This document shows, piece after piece, positions 15,653 to 53,978 of a stretch of 64,000 bases of DNA (positions within the stretch are counted from its first letter, which is position 1; each line of letters opens with the position of its first letter). The notes below the pieces were generated by a model. The model was not told the DNA's origin, made no database searches, and worked only from the letters and a program-made list of their open reading frames with translations. The position numbers and the translations under genes were made by a program. Source of the stretch: Gemmatimonadales bacterium (GTDB lineage: Bacteria; Gemmatimonadota; Gemmatimonadetes; Palauibacterales; Palauibacteraceae); NCBI GenBank assembly GCA_037385645.1, contig JARRMU010000007.1, positions 8,040-72,039 on the forward strand. Reading direction: 5' to 3'.

Positions 15653-17383
15653 CTAAACGGCCGTCGGCTCTCTGCCGAGATCGGAAGCGGGACCGGCGCC
15701 CTGCGGCGCTTCCGCCTCCGCCGCCTCGGTTGCCTGGTGCACTTCGAAGAAGAAGTGATCGGCGCCCACGAGATCCACGATGCCCGCTCGGTCGAGGACG
15801 TCTCGAACGGGGCCCTTCACCCCGACGAAGAAGAACCGGATCCCGGCGGCGTTGAATTCCTCGACGATCTCCTTGAGCGCATGGGCGGCCGTCGAGTCGA
15901 TCTGATTCACCGGGTAGGCGTCGAGCACGAGCGTGTCGAGCGCCGGGTCTCGATCCGCTATCTCCCGCAGCTTGTCCTTCAGGAAGGTGGCGTTCCCGAA
16001 GAAGAGGGGCGCGTCGACCCGGAAGACCACGACGCCGCTCCGCACGAGTGCCTCAGGGTGTCGACGCACGTTGCGGAAGGTAGCCGTGCCCGGCAGCCGG
16101 CCCATGACGGCCGTGTGCGGCCTGTAGCTCTCGTGCACGAGGACGATGAGGGACGCGATCACGCCCAGCAGAATGCCCTGCTCGATTCCCAGGGCTAGGG
16201 TCGCCACGAAGGTCATCGCCATCAGGAAGAAATCCCTGCGCTTTACGTGCCACAGGAAGCGCGCCTCCCGCCAGTCGATGAGTCCCGACACGGCCACGAT
16301 GACGATCGCCGCGAGAACGGCGTTGGGCAGGTAGTAGAAGAGCGGGGTCAGGAACAGCAATGTCAGGGCGATGACTCCGGCGGCGAACAGCGAGGAGAGC
16401 GGCGTACGGGCGCCCGCCCGATCGTTCACCGCCGTGCGGGAGAAGCCGCCCGTCGTCGGGTAGGCCCGGAAGATGGAGCCGACCACGTTCGCCAGGCCCA
16501 GGGCGACCAGCTCCTGGCTCGCCTCCACCTCGTAGCGGTCGCGACTCGCGTAGACCTTCGCGACGGCGATCGATTCCATGAAGCCTACCATCGAGATGAT
16601 CAACGCCGTGGGCAGCAGCGCCCGCAGATCGCCGGCGGCGATGGTGGCCATGCGGGGCGACGGGAGGCCTCGTGGCACGTCTGTCACGATCTGAACGCCG
16701 GCCGCATCGAGTGAGAGCGCGCCGACCGCGACGGTTCCGAGGACGACGACGGCCAGCGGAGCCGGGAGGCTCGGCCTCCATCGCCTCAGCGCCACGAGGA
16801 TCACGATGGCGGCGACGCCGATCGCCAGGGTGATCAGGTGGGTGGAGCCCGCCCGCTGAACGGCGCTCGCGATGATGATGTGGATCTGGGTGGACCGGGG
16901 CAGCGCGATCCCCAACAGGTGCTTGAGCTGGCTGAACCCGATGATGAGCGCCGCCGCTGCCGTGAAGCCCGTGAGCACCGGGTGCGAGAGGAAGTTCACC
17001 AGGAAGCCGAAGCGGGCGAGCCCGAGGGCGAGCTGGATCGCGCCCACCATGCCGGCCAGGAGGATGGCGAGGGCTACGTAGCGCGCCGGATCGGCTCCCG
17101 CGAGCGGACCGACCCCCGCCGCGACCAGCAGGGAAACCATCGCCACCGGGCCGACGGAGAGTGGGCGCGACGTGCCGAACGCCGCGTAAACCGCGAGAGG
17201 CGTGAGCGCCGCGTAGAGCCCGTAGATCGGCTCCAAGCCGGCGATGAGGGCGTACGCCATCCCCTGCGGGATGAGCATGACTCCCACCGTCAGGCCCGCG
17301 GAAAGATCACCTCTCAGCTTGCCGCGATCGTACGCCGTCAGCTCGCTCACGATCGGGACGAGCCGCCTCAGGAGCGCTGCCAT
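15653..17383 (-). CDS. SulP family anion (sulfate) permease with C-terminal STAS domain
   Basis: 576 aa. SulP N-terminal block (RGDLSAGLTVGVMLIPQGMAYALIAGLEP), multiple TM segments, C-terminal STAS (AVMGRLPGTATFRNV... VLDAYPVNQIDSTAAHALKEIVEEF). Confidence 0.9.
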   Translation of the reverse strand: MAALLRRLVPIVSELTAYDRGKLRGDLSAGLTVGVMLIPQGMAYALIAGLEPIYGLYAALTPLAVYAAFGTSRPLSVGPVAMVSLLVAAGVGPLAGADPARYVALAILLAGMVGAIQLALGLARFGFLVNFLSHPVLTGFTAAAALIIGFSQLKHLLGIALPRSTQIHIIIASAVQRAGSTHLITLAIGVAAIVILVALRRWRPSLPAPLAVVVLGTVAVGALSLDAAGVQIVTDVPRGLPSPRMATIAAGDLRALLPTALIISMVGFMESIAVAKVYASRDRYEVEASQELVALGLANVVGSIFRAYPTTGGFSRTAVNDRAGARTPLSSLFAAGVIALTLLFLTPLFYYLPNAVLAAIVIVAVSGLIDWREARFLWHVKRRDFFLMAMTFVATLALGIEQGILLGVIASLIVLVHESYRPHTAVMGRLPGTATFRNVRRHPEALVRSGVVVFRVDAPLFFGNATFLKDKLREIADRDPALDTLVLDAYPVNQIDSTAAHALKEIVEEFNAAGIRFFFVGVKGPVRDVLDRAGIVDLVGADHFFFEVHQATEAAEAEAPQGAGPASDLGREPTAV

Positions 17384-17405: not shown

Positions 17406-18866
17406 TCAGACTGCTGCGGGCTCCGCCGCCTCGGTCGTCTCCAGCGGGCCGATGGCCGGATAGTCGGCGATCAGGTCGTCGACGTAACGCACGTCGAATC
17501 CCTGCCGTTTCAGGTACGAGGCGGCCGCGGCCGCACGGGATCCGGTCCGGCAGTAGACGAGCAGCGTTCCGTTCTCGGGGATACGGGGCTCGTACTCGGG
17601 GAGCCTCGTGTAAGAGGTGTTGAGGGCCCCCGGGACCCGACCCTCCTCGAACTCGGAGGAGAACCTGACGTCCAGTGGCAGCGCCCCGTCCTCCTTTCGG
17701 GCCGACTCGAGGTCCGCGAAGTCGATCACGTCGATCGAATCGTAGGCTCCGCCGTCGATGAAGTAGGCTTCCAGCGCTTCCGGCTCGACGAAGCCGGCCA
17801 CGTTGTCGTACCCGATCCGGACCAGGCTCCGGACCGCCTCGTCCAGATCCTCCTCGCGAACCACCAAGAAGAGCGGCGTCGTCTCATCTTCGACCAGCGA
17901 GCCGACCACTTGGCTGAACGCCCGGTCCAGCGGCGCGTAGAGGGAGCCCTCGAGGTGGCGGGCCATGTACGCGTCCCTGTCCAGCCGGGTGTCGACCACG
18001 AGCAGGTCCTCTCGTCCCGAGAGCTTCTCGAGCTCCGAGCGGGCGAGCTTGCGCGGCGAGGGCAGGTTGCCGAGGACGGGCGCGCCGAGCTTGTTGTCCC
18101 GCTTCATGCGTGCGAAATAGGTCGGCGGCTCGGGCTGGCCGGTGAGGATGAAGTCCACGAAGGCGTCCTCGCCGCGCATCGCGGCCTCGATCGCCGGGCT
18201 GAAGCGCCGCTCGTAGCCTACGGTCGTCTCCGGAACCGCCCCCAGGGCCTTCCCGCAGGCCGAGCCGGCGCCATGGGCAGGCCAGACCTGGAGGTAGTCG
18301 GGCAGCTTCAGAAAATCCTGAACGGAGGAGTAGAGACGCCGGGCCGATGGCTCCATCATGCCCTCGACTTTGGCGGCCGTCTCCAGCAGATCCGGTCGAC
18401 CCAAGTCTCCCACGAAGACGAAATCGCCGCTGGCCAGCCCGATCGGCTCGTCAGCACCCCCTCCCTCGTCGGTGATCAGGAAGACCATGTGCTCGGGCGT
18501 GTGACCGGGCGTGTGAACCGCCTGCACGCTGATGTTGCCGACGCGAAAGGTGTCTCCGTCCTTCAGGAGCTCGTAGTCGTAGTCACCGTCCTTGACCCAC
18601 TCGTACTTCCAGTTCGCGTCGCCCTCATCGGAGAGGTAGAGCTTCGTGCCGAAGCGCTCGGCGAACTCTCGCGCACCCGAGAGGAAGTCGGCGTGAATAT
18701 GTGTCTCGGTGACCGTGGTGATCGTGAGCCCTTCGGACTCGGCCAGCTCGACATACCGGTCGATGTCGCGCTCGGGGTCGATGACCAGAGCCTCGCCCGT
18801 GGCTTGGCAGCCGACCAGGTACGCGTACTGGGCGAGCTTGTCGTCGAAGATCTGTCGCAAGAGCAT
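17406..18866 (-). CDS. Persulfide dioxygenase (MBL-fold, ETHE1/CstB/Blh-like) fused to two rhodanese domains
   Basis: 486 aa. MBL metal-binding motifs (THIHADFLSG, HTPGHTPEHMVFL). C-terminal rhodanese domains with catalytic CRTGSRA (Cys-Arg-x-Gly-x-Arg). Confidence 0.85.
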   Translation of the reverse strand: MLLRQIFDDKLAQYAYLVGCQATGEALVIDPERDIDRYVELAESEGLTITTVTETHIHADFLSGAREFAERFGTKLYLSDEGDANWKYEWVKDGDYDYELLKDGDTFRVGNISVQAVHTPGHTPEHMVFLITDEGGGADEPIGLASGDFVFVGDLGRPDLLETAAKVEGMMEPSARRLYSSVQDFLKLPDYLQVWPAHGAGSACGKALGAVPETTVGYERRFSPAIEAAMRGEDAFVDFILTGQPEPPTYFARMKRDNKLGAPVLGNLPSPRKLARSELEKLSGREDLLVVDTRLDRDAYMARHLEGSLYAPLDRAFSQVVGSLVEDETTPLFLVVREEDLDEAVRSLVRIGYDNVAGFVEPEALEAYFIDGGAYDSIDVIDFADLESARKEDGALPLDVRFSSEFEEGRVPGALNTSYTRLPEYEPRIPENGTLLVYCRTGSRAAAAASYLKRQGFDVRYVDDLIADYPAIGPLETTEAAEPAAV

Positions 18867-30210: not shown

Positions 30211-31011
30211 ATGAGAGTTCACAGGCTCTGGCTTGCCGGCCTTGCGGCTCTGCTCCTGCCGACGGCAGCGGCGGCGCAGGAGGACGAAGGGCCGCAGATG
30301 TTCTTCGTCCATCAGGAGGTCGTGAAGCCGTCGATGATCGCCGAGTACGAAGCGGCGGCGGCCGATTGGATGAAGCTGTTGAGCGGCAGCACGGAGGCGA
30401 AGGGCAAGATCGCCTACTACGCGTACTCCGGCCCACAGATTGGCTTCGTGTACGTCGTGCCGATCGACGACTTCAGCCATTTCTCGGAGATGGGGGACGC
30501 CTTCGACGCCGTGGCCGACGAGGTCGGCGCACCGTGGGAGGAGGCCGGGAATCGATCGGATATGGCGGCGGATCACTTCGAGAGCGGCTTCTACGTGCAC
30601 AGGCCCGACCTCTCCTACGAGCCGGCGAATCCCCGCCTGGGCGATGACGAGGTCAAGATGGTCCACTGGGACTTCTGGTATGCGCTGCCCGATAAGACCG
30701 ACGATCTGGAGGCGGTGGCCAAGGAGTTCGTCGAGCTCTATACGTCGGAGAGCCTCGATACCGGCTGGAATGTCTACCAGGCGATCACGGGTGGCGACCT
30801 GCCGCTCTACGTCGTCGCGGTGCAGGCTCGGGATGAGGCCGATTTCTACGCGAACGAGGCGCGGCTGAACGAGCTCGTCGGCGCCGAGGCACAGAAGCTG
30901 GGGATGAAGGCGTTGAAGGCGGCGCGACGAGTCGAGCCGTTTATCGGCTGGTACCGGCCGGATCTTTCCTACCCGCAGGCGACGGAGATGGCGACGGAGG
31001 GTGGCGAATGA
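30211..31011 (+). CDS. Exported hypothetical protein
   Basis: ATG at 30211 with GGAGG 6 nt upstream. Signal peptide MRVHRLWLAGLAALLLPTAAAAQ. No recognisable domain. Confidence 0.55.
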   Translation: MRVHRLWLAGLAALLLPTAAAAQEDEGPQMFFVHQEVVKPSMIAEYEAAAADWMKLLSGSTEAKGKIAYYAYSGPQIGFVYVVPIDDFSHFSEMGDAFDAVADEVGAPWEEAGNRSDMAADHFESGFYVHRPDLSYEPANPRLGDDEVKMVHWDFWYALPDKTDDLEAVAKEFVELYTSESLDTGWNVYQAITGGDLPLYVVAVQARDEADFYANEARLNELVGAEAQKLGMKALKAARRVEPFIGWYRPDLSYPQATEMATEGGE

Positions 31012-31313
31012 TGCTCGGTTGGCTGGGCGCGTTCTGCCTGTTTTGGGTGGTTTCCTCGCTCTACCTGGGCGGAATGGACGTGGAGCTGGAGGGGGGCTCC
31101 GGCTTCCGTCAGCTTCTGGGGCTGCTGGTCATGAACGTGCTCTTCCTGGTTGCCTGGCGGGCTCTGGCCGCCGCGATTGGGGGTCTGGGTGGTGTGCCTG
31201 GCGTGGTTCTGCCATACCTGGCCACTGTCCTGCTCGTGCCGTTGCTTGCGAGGGGGGCGTTCGGCGTGATGGGGGTCAAGCTCAGCCGAGGGGGCGGCGC
31301 CCACGCCCACTAG
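31008..31313 (+). CDS. Small integral membrane protein (hypothetical)
   Basis: 101 aa, three hydrophobic helices. ATGA overlap with the upstream gene. Confidence 0.45.
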   Translation: MMLGWLGAFCLFWVVSSLYLGGMDVELEGGSGFRQLLGLLVMNVLFLVAWRALAAAIGGLGGVPGVVLPYLATVLLVPLLARGAFGVMGVKLSRGGGAHAH

Positions 31314-31945
31314 CGGGGAGACTCGTGGGGGTCGGGATCCGGCGGTGGCTGGCCGTCCGGTCCCGGCTCCTCGCCCCAGGGCCGGATGAAGTCCTCGGCC
31401 TCCACGCCGAGGCCGTCCGCGATTCGCGTGATGTAGTTGAAGTAGGCGATCACCTGAGCCGCGTCGTGGATCCCGGTGTCGTCGAATCCGTGGGTTCGGA
31501 GCCGCTCAAGATCCGCGGGTGACATCTCCTGTTGGCGGTGCGTGAGCTTCTCGGCGAACTCGCACAGCGCCCGGTCGGCGGTGGGGAGCTCCGCCTCCCG
31601 CCAGTTCCGCGCGACATCGTGGACGAATCTGTCGGCTTCCTCTTCGGTCTCGAAGTGCCCGGCGACCTCGGCCCGGAGGTCGTGCGCGTGCGCCTGCGTT
31701 CAGTAGTGGCAGTCGAGCTCGGCCGAGACCACGGTGGCGAGGAGCTCGCGCTGGGCGCGCGACAGGGGTGAGCGACCGAACATCAGCGCGCCGTAGAAAC
31801 CGATGCCTTCCTTCAGCACCCGCGGGTTCAAGCTCATGATGTGGACGATCTTCCACACCCGCCCCGCACGCTCGAGCGCCTTGTCGAACTCCTGCTTCAG
31901 CAGTCCGGTGGCCTCATCGATCGGTATCTGGCGGATCCAGGGCAT
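31310..31945 (-). CDS. AhpD-like (carboxymuconolactone decarboxylase family, peroxidase-related) selenoprotein; in-frame TGA (Sec) at 31700-31702
   Basis: Track ORFs 31700..32188 and 31310..31525 are in the same frame (177 nt apart), separated only by TGA. Read-through gives ...RELLATVVSAELDCHY-U-TQAHAHDLRAEV..., i.e. Cys-x-x-Sec-x-x-x-His at the AhpD catalytic Cys-x-x-Cys-x-x-x-His position. Start placed at MPWIRQIPIDEATGLLKQEF (31945). Confidence 0.7.
31663..31682 (-). other. Candidate bacterial SECIS hairpin ~18 nt downstream of the UGA
   Basis: mRNA reads UGA-ACGCAGGCGCACGCGCA-CGACCUC-CGGGCC-GAGGUCG: a perfect 7-bp stem with a 6-nt G-rich loop. Confidence 0.4.
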
Positions 31946-32068
31946 TCCTTCGCTCCCTCCTGGTCGAGACCTGGGCACGAGGCGGTCGTTGACCAAAGAT
32001 GTCATGGCCCGCCGAAGCCGCGCCAGTGCAAGTTGTTTGACTGTTGCCACATACGTTATGATCCGGCT

Positions 32069-33508
32069 GTGACGAACGGGACTTCCGACGCCGTGTGGGA
32101 GAAGCTTCCGCCGATCGTCGAGCCGGTTTTCGGCATCGATGAGCGGCCGGAGAGCTGGTGGGAGACGCTGCTCTACGGTTGGCAGCACACGCTTGTGGAC
32201 ATCTCGCCCTTCGTGCTCCCACTCGCGGTCGCCGCCGCGATCGGGATGTCTCCCGACGATGAGGCGTCGCTCATCAACTTCGGCCTCTTCTCCATGGGCG
32301 TGGCGACCCTCATCCAGACGACGATCGGCAACCGCCTCCCGATCATCCAGGGACCGTCGGCCACGCTGACCGGAACCCTGGCTCCGGTCGCCTCACAGCT
32401 CGGTCCGGGTGCGATGTGGGGCGCTGCCTTCGCGGGCGGCTTGGCGGAGATGGCATTCGGTGCCACCCGCGCGCTCACTCTGCTCCGGCGGTTCTTTCCT
32501 CCCGCCGTGGCGGGAGTGGTGGTGCTGACGATCGCCCTCGCCCTCGGCCAGGTAGCCGTTCGCCTTATGGTCGGAGACGGTCAGGCTCTGAACTTCGTGC
32601 TGGCCGCCGCGGTGCTGGCTCTCGTGGCGCTCCTCCAGCTGCGCCTCAAGAACGTCTGGGGCGGAATCCTGTCTCGCGGAGCGATCTTCGTCTCGATCTG
32701 GGTGGTGGGGATCGGTCTCGCCGGCCTGCTCGGAAAGGTCGACTGGGCCCTGGTCGGGGCCAAGGAGTGGATCGCCTGGCCGGACCTGTTCCCCTGGGGA
32801 GGCCCGGGTTTCGGTTGGAGCTTCGTCGGCGCGGCGTTTCTGGCTGTCGTGGCCGGATACTTCGGGTCGATGGTAGAGTCGCTGGGCGACTACGCGGCGA
32901 CCTGCGCGGTGGCCGGAGAGCGCTACACGGTGCGCCACATGAACCGCGGCATATTCGCCGAGGGTCTCGGCAGCGCGCTGGCCACAGTGCTCGGCGGTCT
33001 GCCCTGCACGAGCTACACGCAGAACGTCGGCATCATTGCGACGACCCGGGTGGCCAGCCGCACGGTCGTGCGCGTCGCGGCGTTGATCCTCGCTCTGTAC
33101 GGCCTCAGCCCCAAGTTCGGAGCGCTCCTCGTGGCCATGCCGCGACCCGTGCTCGGGGGCGTCTTCGTGCTGGTATGCGGGATGATCGCGGTTTCCGGGA
33201 TCCGGCTCCTCGGAGCGGCGAAGCAGACGACGACCAACTACCTCGTCAGCGGCCTCACGCTCGTGCTGGCGATCGGCCTGCCGACGTACGTCCGGTACGG
33301 TCTCGGGGAGCCGTGGCTGCAGGAGCTTCCGCTGCTGCTTCGGCTCGTCCTCACCAATCCTGTCGTGCTCGCCGTGCTGGCGGCCGTCGGCCTCAACGCG
33401 CTGACCTCCCTGGCCGCCACGCCCGACGTCGAGCCGGCCGGGGGAGGGGAGGAGGAGACGGGCCAGGCCGACAGCCGGACCGATGCGGAAGGGCCGTCCG
33501 AGGATTAG
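32069..33508 (+). CDS. Nucleobase:cation symporter-2 (NCS2) family permease (xanthine/uracil/purine permease-like)
   Basis: GTG at 32069 (track ORF begins earlier in non-coding-looking sequence). NCS2 blocks QHTLVDISPFVLPLAVAAAIG, GNRLPIIQGPSATL; 12+ TM. Confidence 0.8.
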   Translation: MTNGTSDAVWEKLPPIVEPVFGIDERPESWWETLLYGWQHTLVDISPFVLPLAVAAAIGMSPDDEASLINFGLFSMGVATLIQTTIGNRLPIIQGPSATLTGTLAPVASQLGPGAMWGAAFAGGLAEMAFGATRALTLLRRFFPPAVAGVVVLTIALALGQVAVRLMVGDGQALNFVLAAAVLALVALLQLRLKNVWGGILSRGAIFVSIWVVGIGLAGLLGKVDWALVGAKEWIAWPDLFPWGGPGFGWSFVGAAFLAVVAGYFGSMVESLGDYAATCAVAGERYTVRHMNRGIFAEGLGSALATVLGGLPCTSYTQNVGIIATTRVASRTVVRVAALILALYGLSPKFGALLVAMPRPVLGGVFVLVCGMIAVSGIRLLGAAKQTTTNYLVSGLTLVLAIGLPTYVRYGLGEPWLQELPLLLRLVLTNPVVLAVLAAVGLNALTSLAATPDVEPAGGGEEETGQADSRTDAEGPSED

Positions 33509-36111: not shown

Positions 36112-37314
36112 TCAGGCGGATCGCACCTCTGCCCACCATTCGCGCGGTTTCCAGCGCTCGCCGAACCCCAGCTTCTTGTCGACCCACAGCATCAAGCGGC
36201 GGAGGGGGGTGCCGGCGAGGGTGCGTCCCAGGCGCGCCCACCAACGGGAGAAGTCCTTGTTGTAGGGGCAGACGCGGAGGCAGATGGCGCAGTCGCTATT
36301 CTGCTTCACCCAGTAGTCGAAGCAGCGCTCCCCGTCGATCGACCACTTCCGCACGCCGCGCAGGTTGGACTCGTTGAAGCCCTCCGTCGTCGGCTCGCCG
36401 TCGGAGATCGCCTTGACCGGGCAGGCGTCGCTACAGCGGCGGCACACGTCGCAGAATTCCTTGACCCCGAACCGGATGGGCGCGTCCAATGCGAGCGGAA
36501 GGTCGGTGAAGACTTTCCCCAATCGCACCCGCGGGCCGAACTCTTTCGTGATCAGGAGCCCGAGCCGGCTGTACTCTCCGAGTCCCGCTTTGATGGCATA
36601 CGGGATGGCCAGCGAAGAGTCGTTCATGCTAGCGACCGCGTTGTAGCCGAGGTTCCGGATGTACTGAGCCGTCGAGAGGACGACGAGTGCATCGTGTGAG
36701 TAGCCGAGACCCGTCGCCGCGCCGCTGAGCGCCGAGGGTACGGTCCTGATCCAGTCGTAGTCCATCTGCTGCGCCGTGACGACCACCCAATCCAGGCCGG
36801 TGGGGATGTCGTTGGGCCGCTCCGTTAGAGAGATGTCGCTGAACTTCGAGGCGTACATCCAGCGCTCATCGTACTCCGTGATGCCGACGAGGCTGGCGCC
36901 AAACGCTTTCGCGACCCGTTTGATTTCCCGCGCAGCTGCCTCGGGCGACTCGAACTCGCTCCTCTCGCTGGCGATATCGCGCTGGAGCGTAAAGGCGTCC
37001 GTGAACCCCTCGCGCCGATCCTCGGACTCCTTGAGCTCGGTGAAGATGTCGCTCACGTGCCAGGCGGCGTTTCGGAGAGCGTAGTCCTTCTGGGTGAACC
37101 CGTCCGCCTTCCGCCAGCTCTCCAGCGCCTCCCGGTAGGTCTTGTAGAAGAGAGCGGATTTGTCGCTCTTGATGCGCTCGTCCCACCAGGAGCGCCGGAA
37201 GACGTCGTACTTTTGATGGAAGCGCTCGAAGTCCGAGGTGATCTCGAAGCCGGCCCGCCGGTCGGAGGTAGCATGGTCGCGACCGACGTCGAGGCCGGCC
37301 CGCTCGTCACTCAA
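36112..37314 (-). CDS. Reductive dehalogenase (RdhA)/QueG superfamily Fe-S protein, cytoplasmic (no TAT signal)
   Basis: 400 aa. Two ferredoxin-type motifs at the C-terminus: CDVCRRCSDACP (CxxCxxCxxxCP) and C-x11-CAICLRVCP, preceded by the RKWSIDGERCFDYW block typical of RdhA-family proteins. Confidence 0.6.
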   Translation of the reverse strand: MSDERAGLDVGRDHATSDRRAGFEITSDFERFHQKYDVFRRSWWDERIKSDKSALFYKTYREALESWRKADGFTQKDYALRNAAWHVSDIFTELKESEDRREGFTDAFTLQRDIASERSEFESPEAAAREIKRVAKAFGASLVGITEYDERWMYASKFSDISLTERPNDIPTGLDWVVVTAQQMDYDWIRTVPSALSGAATGLGYSHDALVVLSTAQYIRNLGYNAVASMNDSSLAIPYAIKAGLGEYSRLGLLITKEFGPRVRLGKVFTDLPLALDAPIRFGVKEFCDVCRRCSDACPVKAISDGEPTTEGFNESNLRGVRKWSIDGERCFDYWVKQNSDCAICLRVCPYNKDFSRWWARLGRTLAGTPLRRLMLWVDKKLGFGERWKPREWWAEVRSA

Positions 37315-37320
37315 CGACCG

Positions 37321-37539
37321 TCACCCGGCGCTCGCCTGGGACCGGACCACCAGACGGTCGAACAGCCTTCGGGAGGCTTCCGCGATCTCCGCCACCGCCG
37401 TGTCGAACGCGTCGCGGTTAGCCTTGGACGGCTCACGGTATCCGCTGATCTTGCGGACGAACTGGAGCGCAGCATCCCGCAGCTCGTCTTCGGTCGGCAG
37501 ACCCGTCGGTTGCCTGAGCTTTCTTATGTTTCTGCACAT
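37321..37539 (-). CDS. Small conserved hypothetical protein (DUF2277-like, MCRNI... start)
   Basis: 72 aa beginning MCRNIRKLRQP. 6 nt downstream of the RdhA-like gene on the same strand. Confidence 0.45.
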   Translation of the reverse strand: MCRNIRKLRQPTGLPTEDELRDAALQFVRKISGYREPSKANRDAFDTAVAEIAEASRRLFDRLVVRSQASAG

Positions 37540-53491: not shown

Positions 53492-53884
53492 GGCGGAGGG
53501 ATGGGAGGTCGCGGGCCGGCATCGAGCGAGTCTCGAGGTGCGGTTCGAGGAAAGTCCGGGCTCCGCAGGGCACGGTGCCGGGTAACGCCCGGGCGCCGCG
53601 AGGCGACGGAAAGTGTCACAGAGAACAGACCGCCGATGGCGGCTTCGGCCGCACAGGCAAGGGTGAAAAGGTGGGGTAAGAGCCCACCGCGCCGCTGGAG
53701 ACAGCGACGGCACGACAAACCCCACCGGGAGCAAGGCCAAATAGGGAGCGAGCGGCGGCCCGCCGCAGTCGAGCTCCGGGTAGGCCGCTAGAGACGCCGG
53801 GCAACCGGTCGTCCGAGACAGATGACCTCCGCGGGGCGTCCTGCAACGCCCCGTAACAGAACCCGGCTTACGTCCCTCCGCCAC
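53492..53884 (+). ncRNA. rnpB: RNase P RNA, bacterial type A
   Basis: Hallmark GAGGAAAGUCCGGGCUCC (53547-53564), GGUGCCGGGUAACGCCCGG, GAAAGUGUCACAGAGAACAGACCGCC, GGUAAGAGCCCACC, ACAAACCCCACCGGGAGCAAGGCCAAAUAGGG, GGGUAGGCCGCUAGAG and 3' ACAGAACCCGGCUUAC. P1 helix 5' GGCGGAGGGA (53492-53501) pairs with 3' UCCCUCCGCC (53873-53882). Confidence 0.85.
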
Positions 53885-53978
53885 CTTCACTACATTCGGC
53901 GGCCGTCACTGGCCACCGAACCTCATCCGGCCAGCGAGGCACGAACGATCACGCGCTCAGGAAAGGAGCCGCACGGAC

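Follow-up and report, generated by a model that had tools for sequence, protein, structure and literature searches.

An AhpD-like gene of a Gemmatimonadales bacterium, interrupted by a conserved in-frame UGA, as a probable selenoprotein gene

The stretch of 64,000 nucleotides (nt) analysed here, called the window in what follows, belongs to contig JARRMU010000007.1 of a Gemmatimonadales bacterium and carries on its minus strand an AhpD-like gene whose reading frame is interrupted by a single TGA. Judged from the DNA and its relatives, this is very probably an intact gene in which the TGA is decoded as selenocysteine (Sec), and it implies the use of Sec by a Gemmatimonadales organism. The kind of selenoprotein is already known, and the novelty of the locus is limited to its mis-annotation.

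The frame extends from the ATG at 31945..31943 to the TAG at 31312..31310 and comprises 212 codons for a product of 211 amino acids (aa; translation of 31945..31310) that has a short Pro/Asp-rich carboxyl-terminal tail. Its sole internal stop is the TGA of codon 82 (31702..31700), within the peptide LATVVSAELD-C-H-Y-*-T-Q-A-H, and neither a frameshift nor a second internal stop is found. The list of open reading frames (ORFs) gives 31700..32188 and 31310..31525 of this strand as separate entries in a common frame. The translation, with its single stop, bears out the proposal of an earlier note on this DNA that the two are one frame split by the TGA. The bias in GC content by codon position continues on both sides of this codon. 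A GGAGG is found ~10 nt upstream of the ATG at 31945 and the amino terminus that starts there agrees with the MPWI... of the homologues. When the window was scanned for in-frame TGA codons with coding bias on both sides, the AhpD-like gene and one doubtful case at 37323 were found.

The family of the product is well defined. Codon 82 was rendered as Cys for the profile searches. The NCBIfam profile TIGR01926 ('peroxidase-related enzyme') matches with 124.4 bits against a cutoff of 81.8, aligning residues 3-183 with profile positions 2-175 of 178 and extending over both sides of the TGA, and the Pfam profile CMD (PF02627) matches with 34.7 bits against a cutoff of 23. These are the two profiles that the earlier note had proposed to search when it assigned the protein to the CMD/AhpD superfamily with the UGA at the second CxxC-type position followed by a His. 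The PDB alignments lead to the same assignment. With the family profile, E values between 4e-41 and 7e-27 were obtained for 6k40, 2pfx, 2oyo, 3c1l and 2prr. Each of these structures is a single domain of ~190 residues, and their alignments of ~170 residues cover both halves of the gene. In the printed alignments with 6k40, 2pfx and 2oyo, a C-x-Y-C with a His four residues later stands opposite C-H-Y-UGA-T-Q-A-H, and the redox motif C79-H-Y-U82-T-Q-A-H86 sits in the C-x-x-[C/U]-x-x-x-H column. By these matches the gene is a member of TIGR01926/COG2128 and the predicted fold of its product is the all-helical CMD/AhpD fold.

Two other memberships were considered and rejected. The product scores 75.1 bits with NF041238 (AhpD_rel_CFYUT), whose cutoff is 175, and aligns with profile positions 216-338 of 357 only; with ahpD_dom (TIGR00778), for an AhpD of the Mycobacterium tuberculosis type, it scores 26.5 bits against a cutoff of 27.8. 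The NCBIfam matches of the read-through product include no AhpD equivalog and the PDB search returned no M. tuberculosis AhpD chain at E<=10. The comparison with M. tuberculosis AhpD made in the earlier note thus holds for motif spacing and as a fold analogy, not for family membership.

Conservation of the UGA was followed in a scan of bacteria with one genome per species. Two codon-degenerate peptide patterns were used; a caveat is that one of them falls within the peptide encoded by the hairpin described below, the other being far downstream. From the 581 relatives that the scan gave, the 80 best loci were retained, making 81 sequences with the window gene; the Sec column was located by local alignment in each of the 80 loci. 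TGA occupies this column in 81/81 sequences, without a single TAA, TAG or sense codon, and TGC or TGT is found three codons earlier, also in 81/81. Cys79 and His86 are invariant. The best 80 loci come from Gemmatimonadota, Chloroflexota (Anaerolineae and others), Acidobacteriota and Actinomycetota, the closest of them (L001) being a Gemmatimonadota metagenome-assembled genome (MAG) with 85% identity. The TGA is also kept in three further near-identical MAG assemblies at NCBI, with 4 nt of difference across the gene, and it is therefore not a sequencing error. In the solved structures and in more distant homologues of the TxxC/CxxC forms the column holds Cys (TGC in L084 and L096), so that the homologues align Sec or Cys at this position, the pattern that the earlier note had suggested looking for. 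That note had also considered that homologous proteins might naturally end here, which is contradicted by the conservation of the coding sequence 3' of the TGA and by the structures that span both parts. Orthologues from Anaerolineales, Acidobacteriota and Actinomycetota are 67-71% similar to the window gene, compared to 64-71% for those from other Gemmatimonadota, and the putative Sec insertion sequence (SECIS) is nearly identical throughout. This cross-phylum similarity suggests horizontal transfer of the AhpD-like gene among phyla.

The SECIS-like hairpin, CGACCUC/CGGGCC/GAGGUCG, is separated from the UGA by 17 nt, its first base being the 18th after the UGA, where the earlier note had placed it. 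The 20-nt element has a folding energy of -10.5 kcal/mol. Its form agrees with what is published on bacterial SECIS elements, which are stem-loops found right after the UGA with a small apical loop containing G (PMC1088965). A hairpin in the same register is possible in 81/81 sequences, and standard pairs fill 97.4% of the pair cells, a share that falls to 22-48% if the 3' side is displaced by 1-3 columns. Pair 24-37 is C-G in 71 sequences, U-A in 7, U-G in 3 and never unpaired: the synonymous change GAC to GAU is coupled to GUC to AUC/AUU in seven sequences and leaves a G-U wobble in three, with no A-C mismatch. The stem of 7 base pairs (bp) described in the earlier note is conserved for 6 bp, and its outer seventh pair is unpaired in 14/81 sequences. 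The conserved element is a 6-bp stem GACCUC/GAGGUC with a C-G-K-G-N-N loop.

Synonymous codon usage in the hairpin was compared with that at invariant columns for the same amino acids within the same 81 genes. Leu at +8 is CTC in 81/81, while the other invariant Leu columns use 5-6 codons with CTC at 28-43%. Glu at +11 is GAG in 81/81, against 74% GAG at the single other invariant Glu column, and Val at +12 is GTC in 89%, against 40-55% elsewhere. Arg at +9 is encoded by CGT or CGG only, which keeps loop base 3 as G or U, while at each of the other four invariant Arg columns the commonest codon is CGC. In L087, a distant Sec-form of marine origin, the stem stays in register and shows a further compensated change (CUC/GAG to UUC/GAA); the TxxC Cys-form L084 has a changed peptide, D-Y-R, and has lost the stem. 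On this comparison the hairpin is under selection at the RNA level. It offers a clean example of the constraints of a coding-region SECIS RNA freezing synonymous codons and shaping the peptide D-L-R-x-E-V.

Natural variants of the Sec column exist among the homologues. They encode Trp by TGG (P0007, 12 contigs from several samples), Arg by AGA (P0020, three contigs), Gly by GGA (P0004, one contig) and Cys by TGC (P0029), all with the hairpin intact. The codons of these variant-column loci (L081-L083, with the gene at 3001-3582 in L081, L094/L095, L090 and L096) are one nucleotide away from TGA. The variants may be recent losses of Sec decoding that retain a 'fossil' SECIS, and the cases seen in a single contig could be sequencing errors. 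A wider scenario appears rather unlikely: the active site and SECIS (C-x-Y-UGA...GACCUC-CGKGNN-GAGGUC) would form a module that moves horizontally as a unit across the four phyla, and the intact hairpin in the UGG, AGA, GGA and UGC lineages would reflect either very recent and repeated loss of Sec decoding or a second role of the hairpin that does not depend on Sec insertion, for example in translational pausing or regulation.

Annotation of the family in databases is affected by its UGA. C-x-x-W is read in 82 of the 120 listed database homologues (P0001-P0120), yet three of the four 'Trp' entries checked (L085-L089 checked) have TGA in their DNA. They are artefacts of gene calling with translation table 4 on short contigs, a procedure that also reads past the true TGA stop and adds false carboxyl-terminal tails (P0001, P0025). 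The explanation does not extend to all CxxW entries, P0007 having a true TGG. Family alignments and profiles built from such databases inherit the false Trp and the false extensions. In the 'Gemmatimonadales bacterium' MAGs of GenBank the gene is entered as a pair of neighbouring 'hypothetical proteins' (81 and 71 aa), the split by automated callers that the earlier note had foreseen. MEJ2334301.1 is the exact carboxyl-terminal sequence of the window, while MEJ2310991.1 and others are close variants (L091-L093). The amino-terminal fragment carries the JGI label 'alkylhydroperoxidase family enzyme'.

Several observations weigh against Sec decoding or against a SECIS function of the hairpin. The single-sequence fold is not significantly better than that of shuffled sequences (z of -1.8 for the 20 nt, -0.4 and +0.6 for longer stretches, at 66% GC). 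The significance of the hairpin rests on the comparison across genomes because such a fold is unexceptional in DNA of this composition. Since the hairpin also encodes the conserved peptide H-D-L-R-x-E-V, it owes some of its conservation to the protein. Rfam gave no SECIS match at the gathering threshold, which was applied to the full window, and for 31560-31760 at E<=10 only a match to an unrelated family at chance level; Rfam is not known to have a general bacterial SECIS model. The TGG, AGA and GGA homologues indicate that a residue other than Sec is tolerated at the column, or at least not immediately purged. No selA, selB or selD was found among the 40 window proteins scanned with NCBIfam, and ARAGORN detected tRNA-Sec neither in the window nor in the 80 related loci.

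The alternatives to Sec decoding account for less of the evidence. The gene could be a pseudogene, or carry a sequencing or assembly error, in which a Cys codon TGC or TGT became TGA and truncated the protein at residue 81. Such a change needs one substitution and would suit the two separate hypothetical proteins of GenBank. It is scarcely credible for a TGA found in 81/81 orthologues of four phyla and again in the three other assemblies of this species, the more so as the 129 downstream codons keep their periodicity and conserved residues with no frameshift or further stop. Two independent small genes, coding an 81-aa and a 71-aa protein as annotated, would fit the separate outputs of the callers and the ATG present at 31525, but the 59 codons from the TGA to this ATG are conserved coding sequence, the homologous structures are single domains covering both parts, and neither fragment alone had a Pfam match in the precomputed calls; the chance that this annotation is right is next to nil. 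The TGA might also be read through without Sec, either by reassignment to Trp or Gly in the whole genome or by near-cognate Trp, Cys or Arg insertion stimulated by the hairpin. The many database entries with Trp at the column and the few homologues that truly encode Trp, Arg or Gly there speak for it. Against it, most of the 'Trp' entries checked go back to the table 4 artefact, the column is the redox-active Cys of CxxC in solved structures, a classic Sec/Cys pair, the loop retains the G and G/U that bacterial SECIS elements have, and the family is catalogued among selenoproteins. Moreover, the 41 genes confidently called in the window end with TAG (19), TGA (19) or TAA (3). TGA is an ordinary stop here and, since it ends 19/41 genes, the code is not reassigned, contrary to a recoding that the earlier note had named as a possible objection. 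Read-through of this type is accordingly considered very unlikely. The TAG stop is unusually frequent for a genome of 66% GC.

The remaining alternative concerns the hairpin, which could be a by-product of the peptide H-D-L-R-x-E-V with no RNA function. Its stem codons encode nearly invariant residues and its single-sequence fold is not significant, which favours such an origin. However, synonymous sites are frozen only here (CTC and GAG in 81/81, no CGC) and are mixed elsewhere, C-G is replaced by U-A and, in distant homologues, UUC pairs with GAA, and the TxxC Cys-form with its D-Y-R peptide has no stem. A by-product is thus extremely improbable. The pseudogene, sequencing-error and recoded-lineage readings are set aside because the TGA is conserved, three assemblies agree on it and TGA stops genes of the window, which leaves decoding of UGA82 as Sec as the preferred reading.

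If UGA82 is decoded in this way, SelB-GTP carrying Sec-tRNA(Sec) would dock on the hairpin while the ribosome stands at the UGA, and Sec would be inserted in place of termination. The redox pair of the protein would then be C-x-x-U, made up of Cys79 and Sec82, and His86 would follow after one turn of helix, as in an AhpD-type CxxC...H site. Nucleophilic attack, on a peroxide or on an oxidised partner (for example a protein of the peroxiredoxin or Ohr/OsmC type), would fall to Sec82. The intermediate would be resolved by Cys79, giving a selenenylsulfide, and His86 would help in the transfer of protons. By its spacing Sec82 would correspond to Cys133 of M. tuberculosis AhpD, which is the nucleophile of that enzyme. 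The product may reduce peroxides directly or recycle a peroxiredoxin- or Ohr/OsmC-type partner, and the selenenylsulfide would be re-reduced by a thiol system of the thioredoxin or lipoamide type.

Table 1. Features of the AhpD-like gene and of its GenBank fragments (window positions).
Feature	Position	Strand	Evidence
AhpD-like (TIGR01926) probable selenoprotein coding sequence, complete	31310..31945	-	one internal TGA; TIGR01926, CMD and PDB matches
UGA codon 82, putative Sec	31700..31702	-	TGA at the column in 81/81; Cys in structures and Cys-forms
Cys79 codon TGC, C-x-x-U partner of Sec82	31709..31711	-	TGC/TGT in 81/81
His86 codon, H of C-x-x-[C/U]-x-x-x-H	31688..31690	-	His in 81/81; aligns with the His of 6k40 CVYCAVSH
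SECIS-like hairpin CGACCUC/CGGGCC/GAGGUCG	31663..31682	-	fold, pairing across 81 sequences, codon usage
Core 6-bp stem; apical loop	31681..31676 with 31669..31664; 31675..31670	-	
Shine-Dalgarno-like GGAGGGAG upstream of the ATG	31953..31960	-	read off the sequence
GenBank amino-terminal fragment, 81 aa, 'hypothetical protein', e.g. MEJ2310990.1	31700..31945	-	exact look-up, gene calls in near-identical MAG contigs
GenBank carboxyl-terminal fragment, 71 aa, 'hypothetical protein', MEJ2334301.1	31310..31525	-	exact look-up, gene calls

The AhpD-like gene lies alone on the minus strand amid plus-strand genes and is, because of this arrangement, monocistronic. Its neighbours are an NCS2/xanthine-type permease and a thioredoxin of the TrxC type that bears a zinc-finger-like CxxC pair at its N terminus, the two flanking genes named in the earlier note. 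The gene call in a near-identical contig puts the true start of the permease near 32069, and the permease gene is divergent from the AhpD-like gene without overlap. Genes for a YbdK-type carboxylate-amine ligase and for a reductive-dehalogenase-like protein are found nearby. The 'redox island' that the earlier note had seen in this arrangement does not hold as a conserved functional unit or operon: nine neighbour proteins compared with the 80 loci by tblastn match only L001, and when the flanking ORFs were clustered de novo no partner family occurred in more than 9/80 loci.

A predicted small membrane protein of 101 aa is encoded on the plus strand at 31008-31313. Its ORF converges with the AhpD-like gene, the stop codons of the two overlapping in a CTAG palindrome (31310-31313), and it is also called in related MAGs and partly conserved in L001. 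The second in-frame TGA, at 37323 on the minus strand, has a coding-like GC bias at third codon positions over 73 codons upstream and 402 downstream. It lies directly upstream of the reductive-dehalogenase-like gene (36112-37314) and is probably the end of an adjacent ORF or part of an N-terminal extension. The window also codes for a class A RNase P RNA (53493-53885, plus strand; full-length Rfam match, 266 bits).

Other redox and sulfur genes of the window are those of a Cys-form MsrA (404-955) and of a pyridine-nucleotide-disulfide oxidoreductase (967-2367), the latter with a weak sub-threshold match to 'Nterm_to_SelD', and, among 17406-18866 and 15653-17383, those of a metallo-beta-lactamase-fold sulfur-dioxygenase-like protein and a SulP permease. 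The Sec machinery is represented by none of these four genes. The literature search on Sec use in Gemmatimonadota found nothing usable.

The element of the window gene resembles the SECIS of Escherichia coli fdhF in being a stem-loop that closely follows the UGA within the coding sequence and in the G/U bases of its apical loop, which are presumed to contact SelB. It differs from fdhF in its 6-nt loop, in lacking a conserved lower stem and in showing no clear bulged U. The fdhF stem starts ~11 nt after the UGA, compared to 18 nt in the window gene. In one low-GC homologue (L086) the hairpin can also be read as having a GGUC tetraloop, as in fdhF.

The nearest characterised relative is DR1765 of Deinococcus radiodurans (PDB access code 6k40), which shares with the window gene its family, length, an alignment of ~170 residues (E of 1.5e-23 with the single sequence and 3.8e-41 with the profile) and the C-x-Y-C-x-x-x-H columns. 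The mutant lacking DR1765 is sensitive to H2O2, and its full complementation requires the cysteines of the CxxC motif (PMC8945050). By analogy, this supports a role of the window gene product in peroxide defence that would depend on its CxxC-type pair. In DR1765, 2pfx, 2oyo, 3c1l and 2prr the second position is Cys and not Sec, and the D-L-R-x-E-V/SECIS segment is absent (GAALREF in 6k40). M. tuberculosis AhpD shares the CMD-superfamily helical fold and the C-x-x-C-x-x-x-H spacing (Cys130/Cys133/His137); its identity to DR1765 is 12% (PMC8945050). NF041238 (AhpD_rel_CFYUT), the 'hypothetical protein 1' of the Sargasso Sea, has a related carboxyl-terminal CMD domain with a motif of the C-F-Y-U-T type and differs by its 357-aa profile.

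The study of the Sargasso Sea selenoproteome that first reported the AhpD-like selenoprotein family, in 2005, is that of Zhang, Fomenko and Gladyshev. It described 27 sequences with CXXU (PMC1088965). In the Global Ocean Sampling (GOS) survey of 2008 the family, as AhpD-like 1 (COG2128, CxxU), was the fourth most abundant prokaryotic selenoprotein family with 299 sequences (PMC2398784). A table of a 2026 review in Applied and Environmental Microbiology (AEM) lists 'AhpD-like protein, TIGR01926, CxxU' (PMC13188914), and BSepDB takes the AhpD-like family to illustrate how its entries can be browsed by family of selenoprotein. The window gene has all the defining features tested of this kind, known since 2005: the same HMM family, CxxU, and a hairpin just after the UGA with G in a small loop. 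Nothing essential sets it apart; it is a copy from a Gemmatimonadales MAG, with a Pro/Asp-rich tail, that stands in GenBank without a selenoprotein label.

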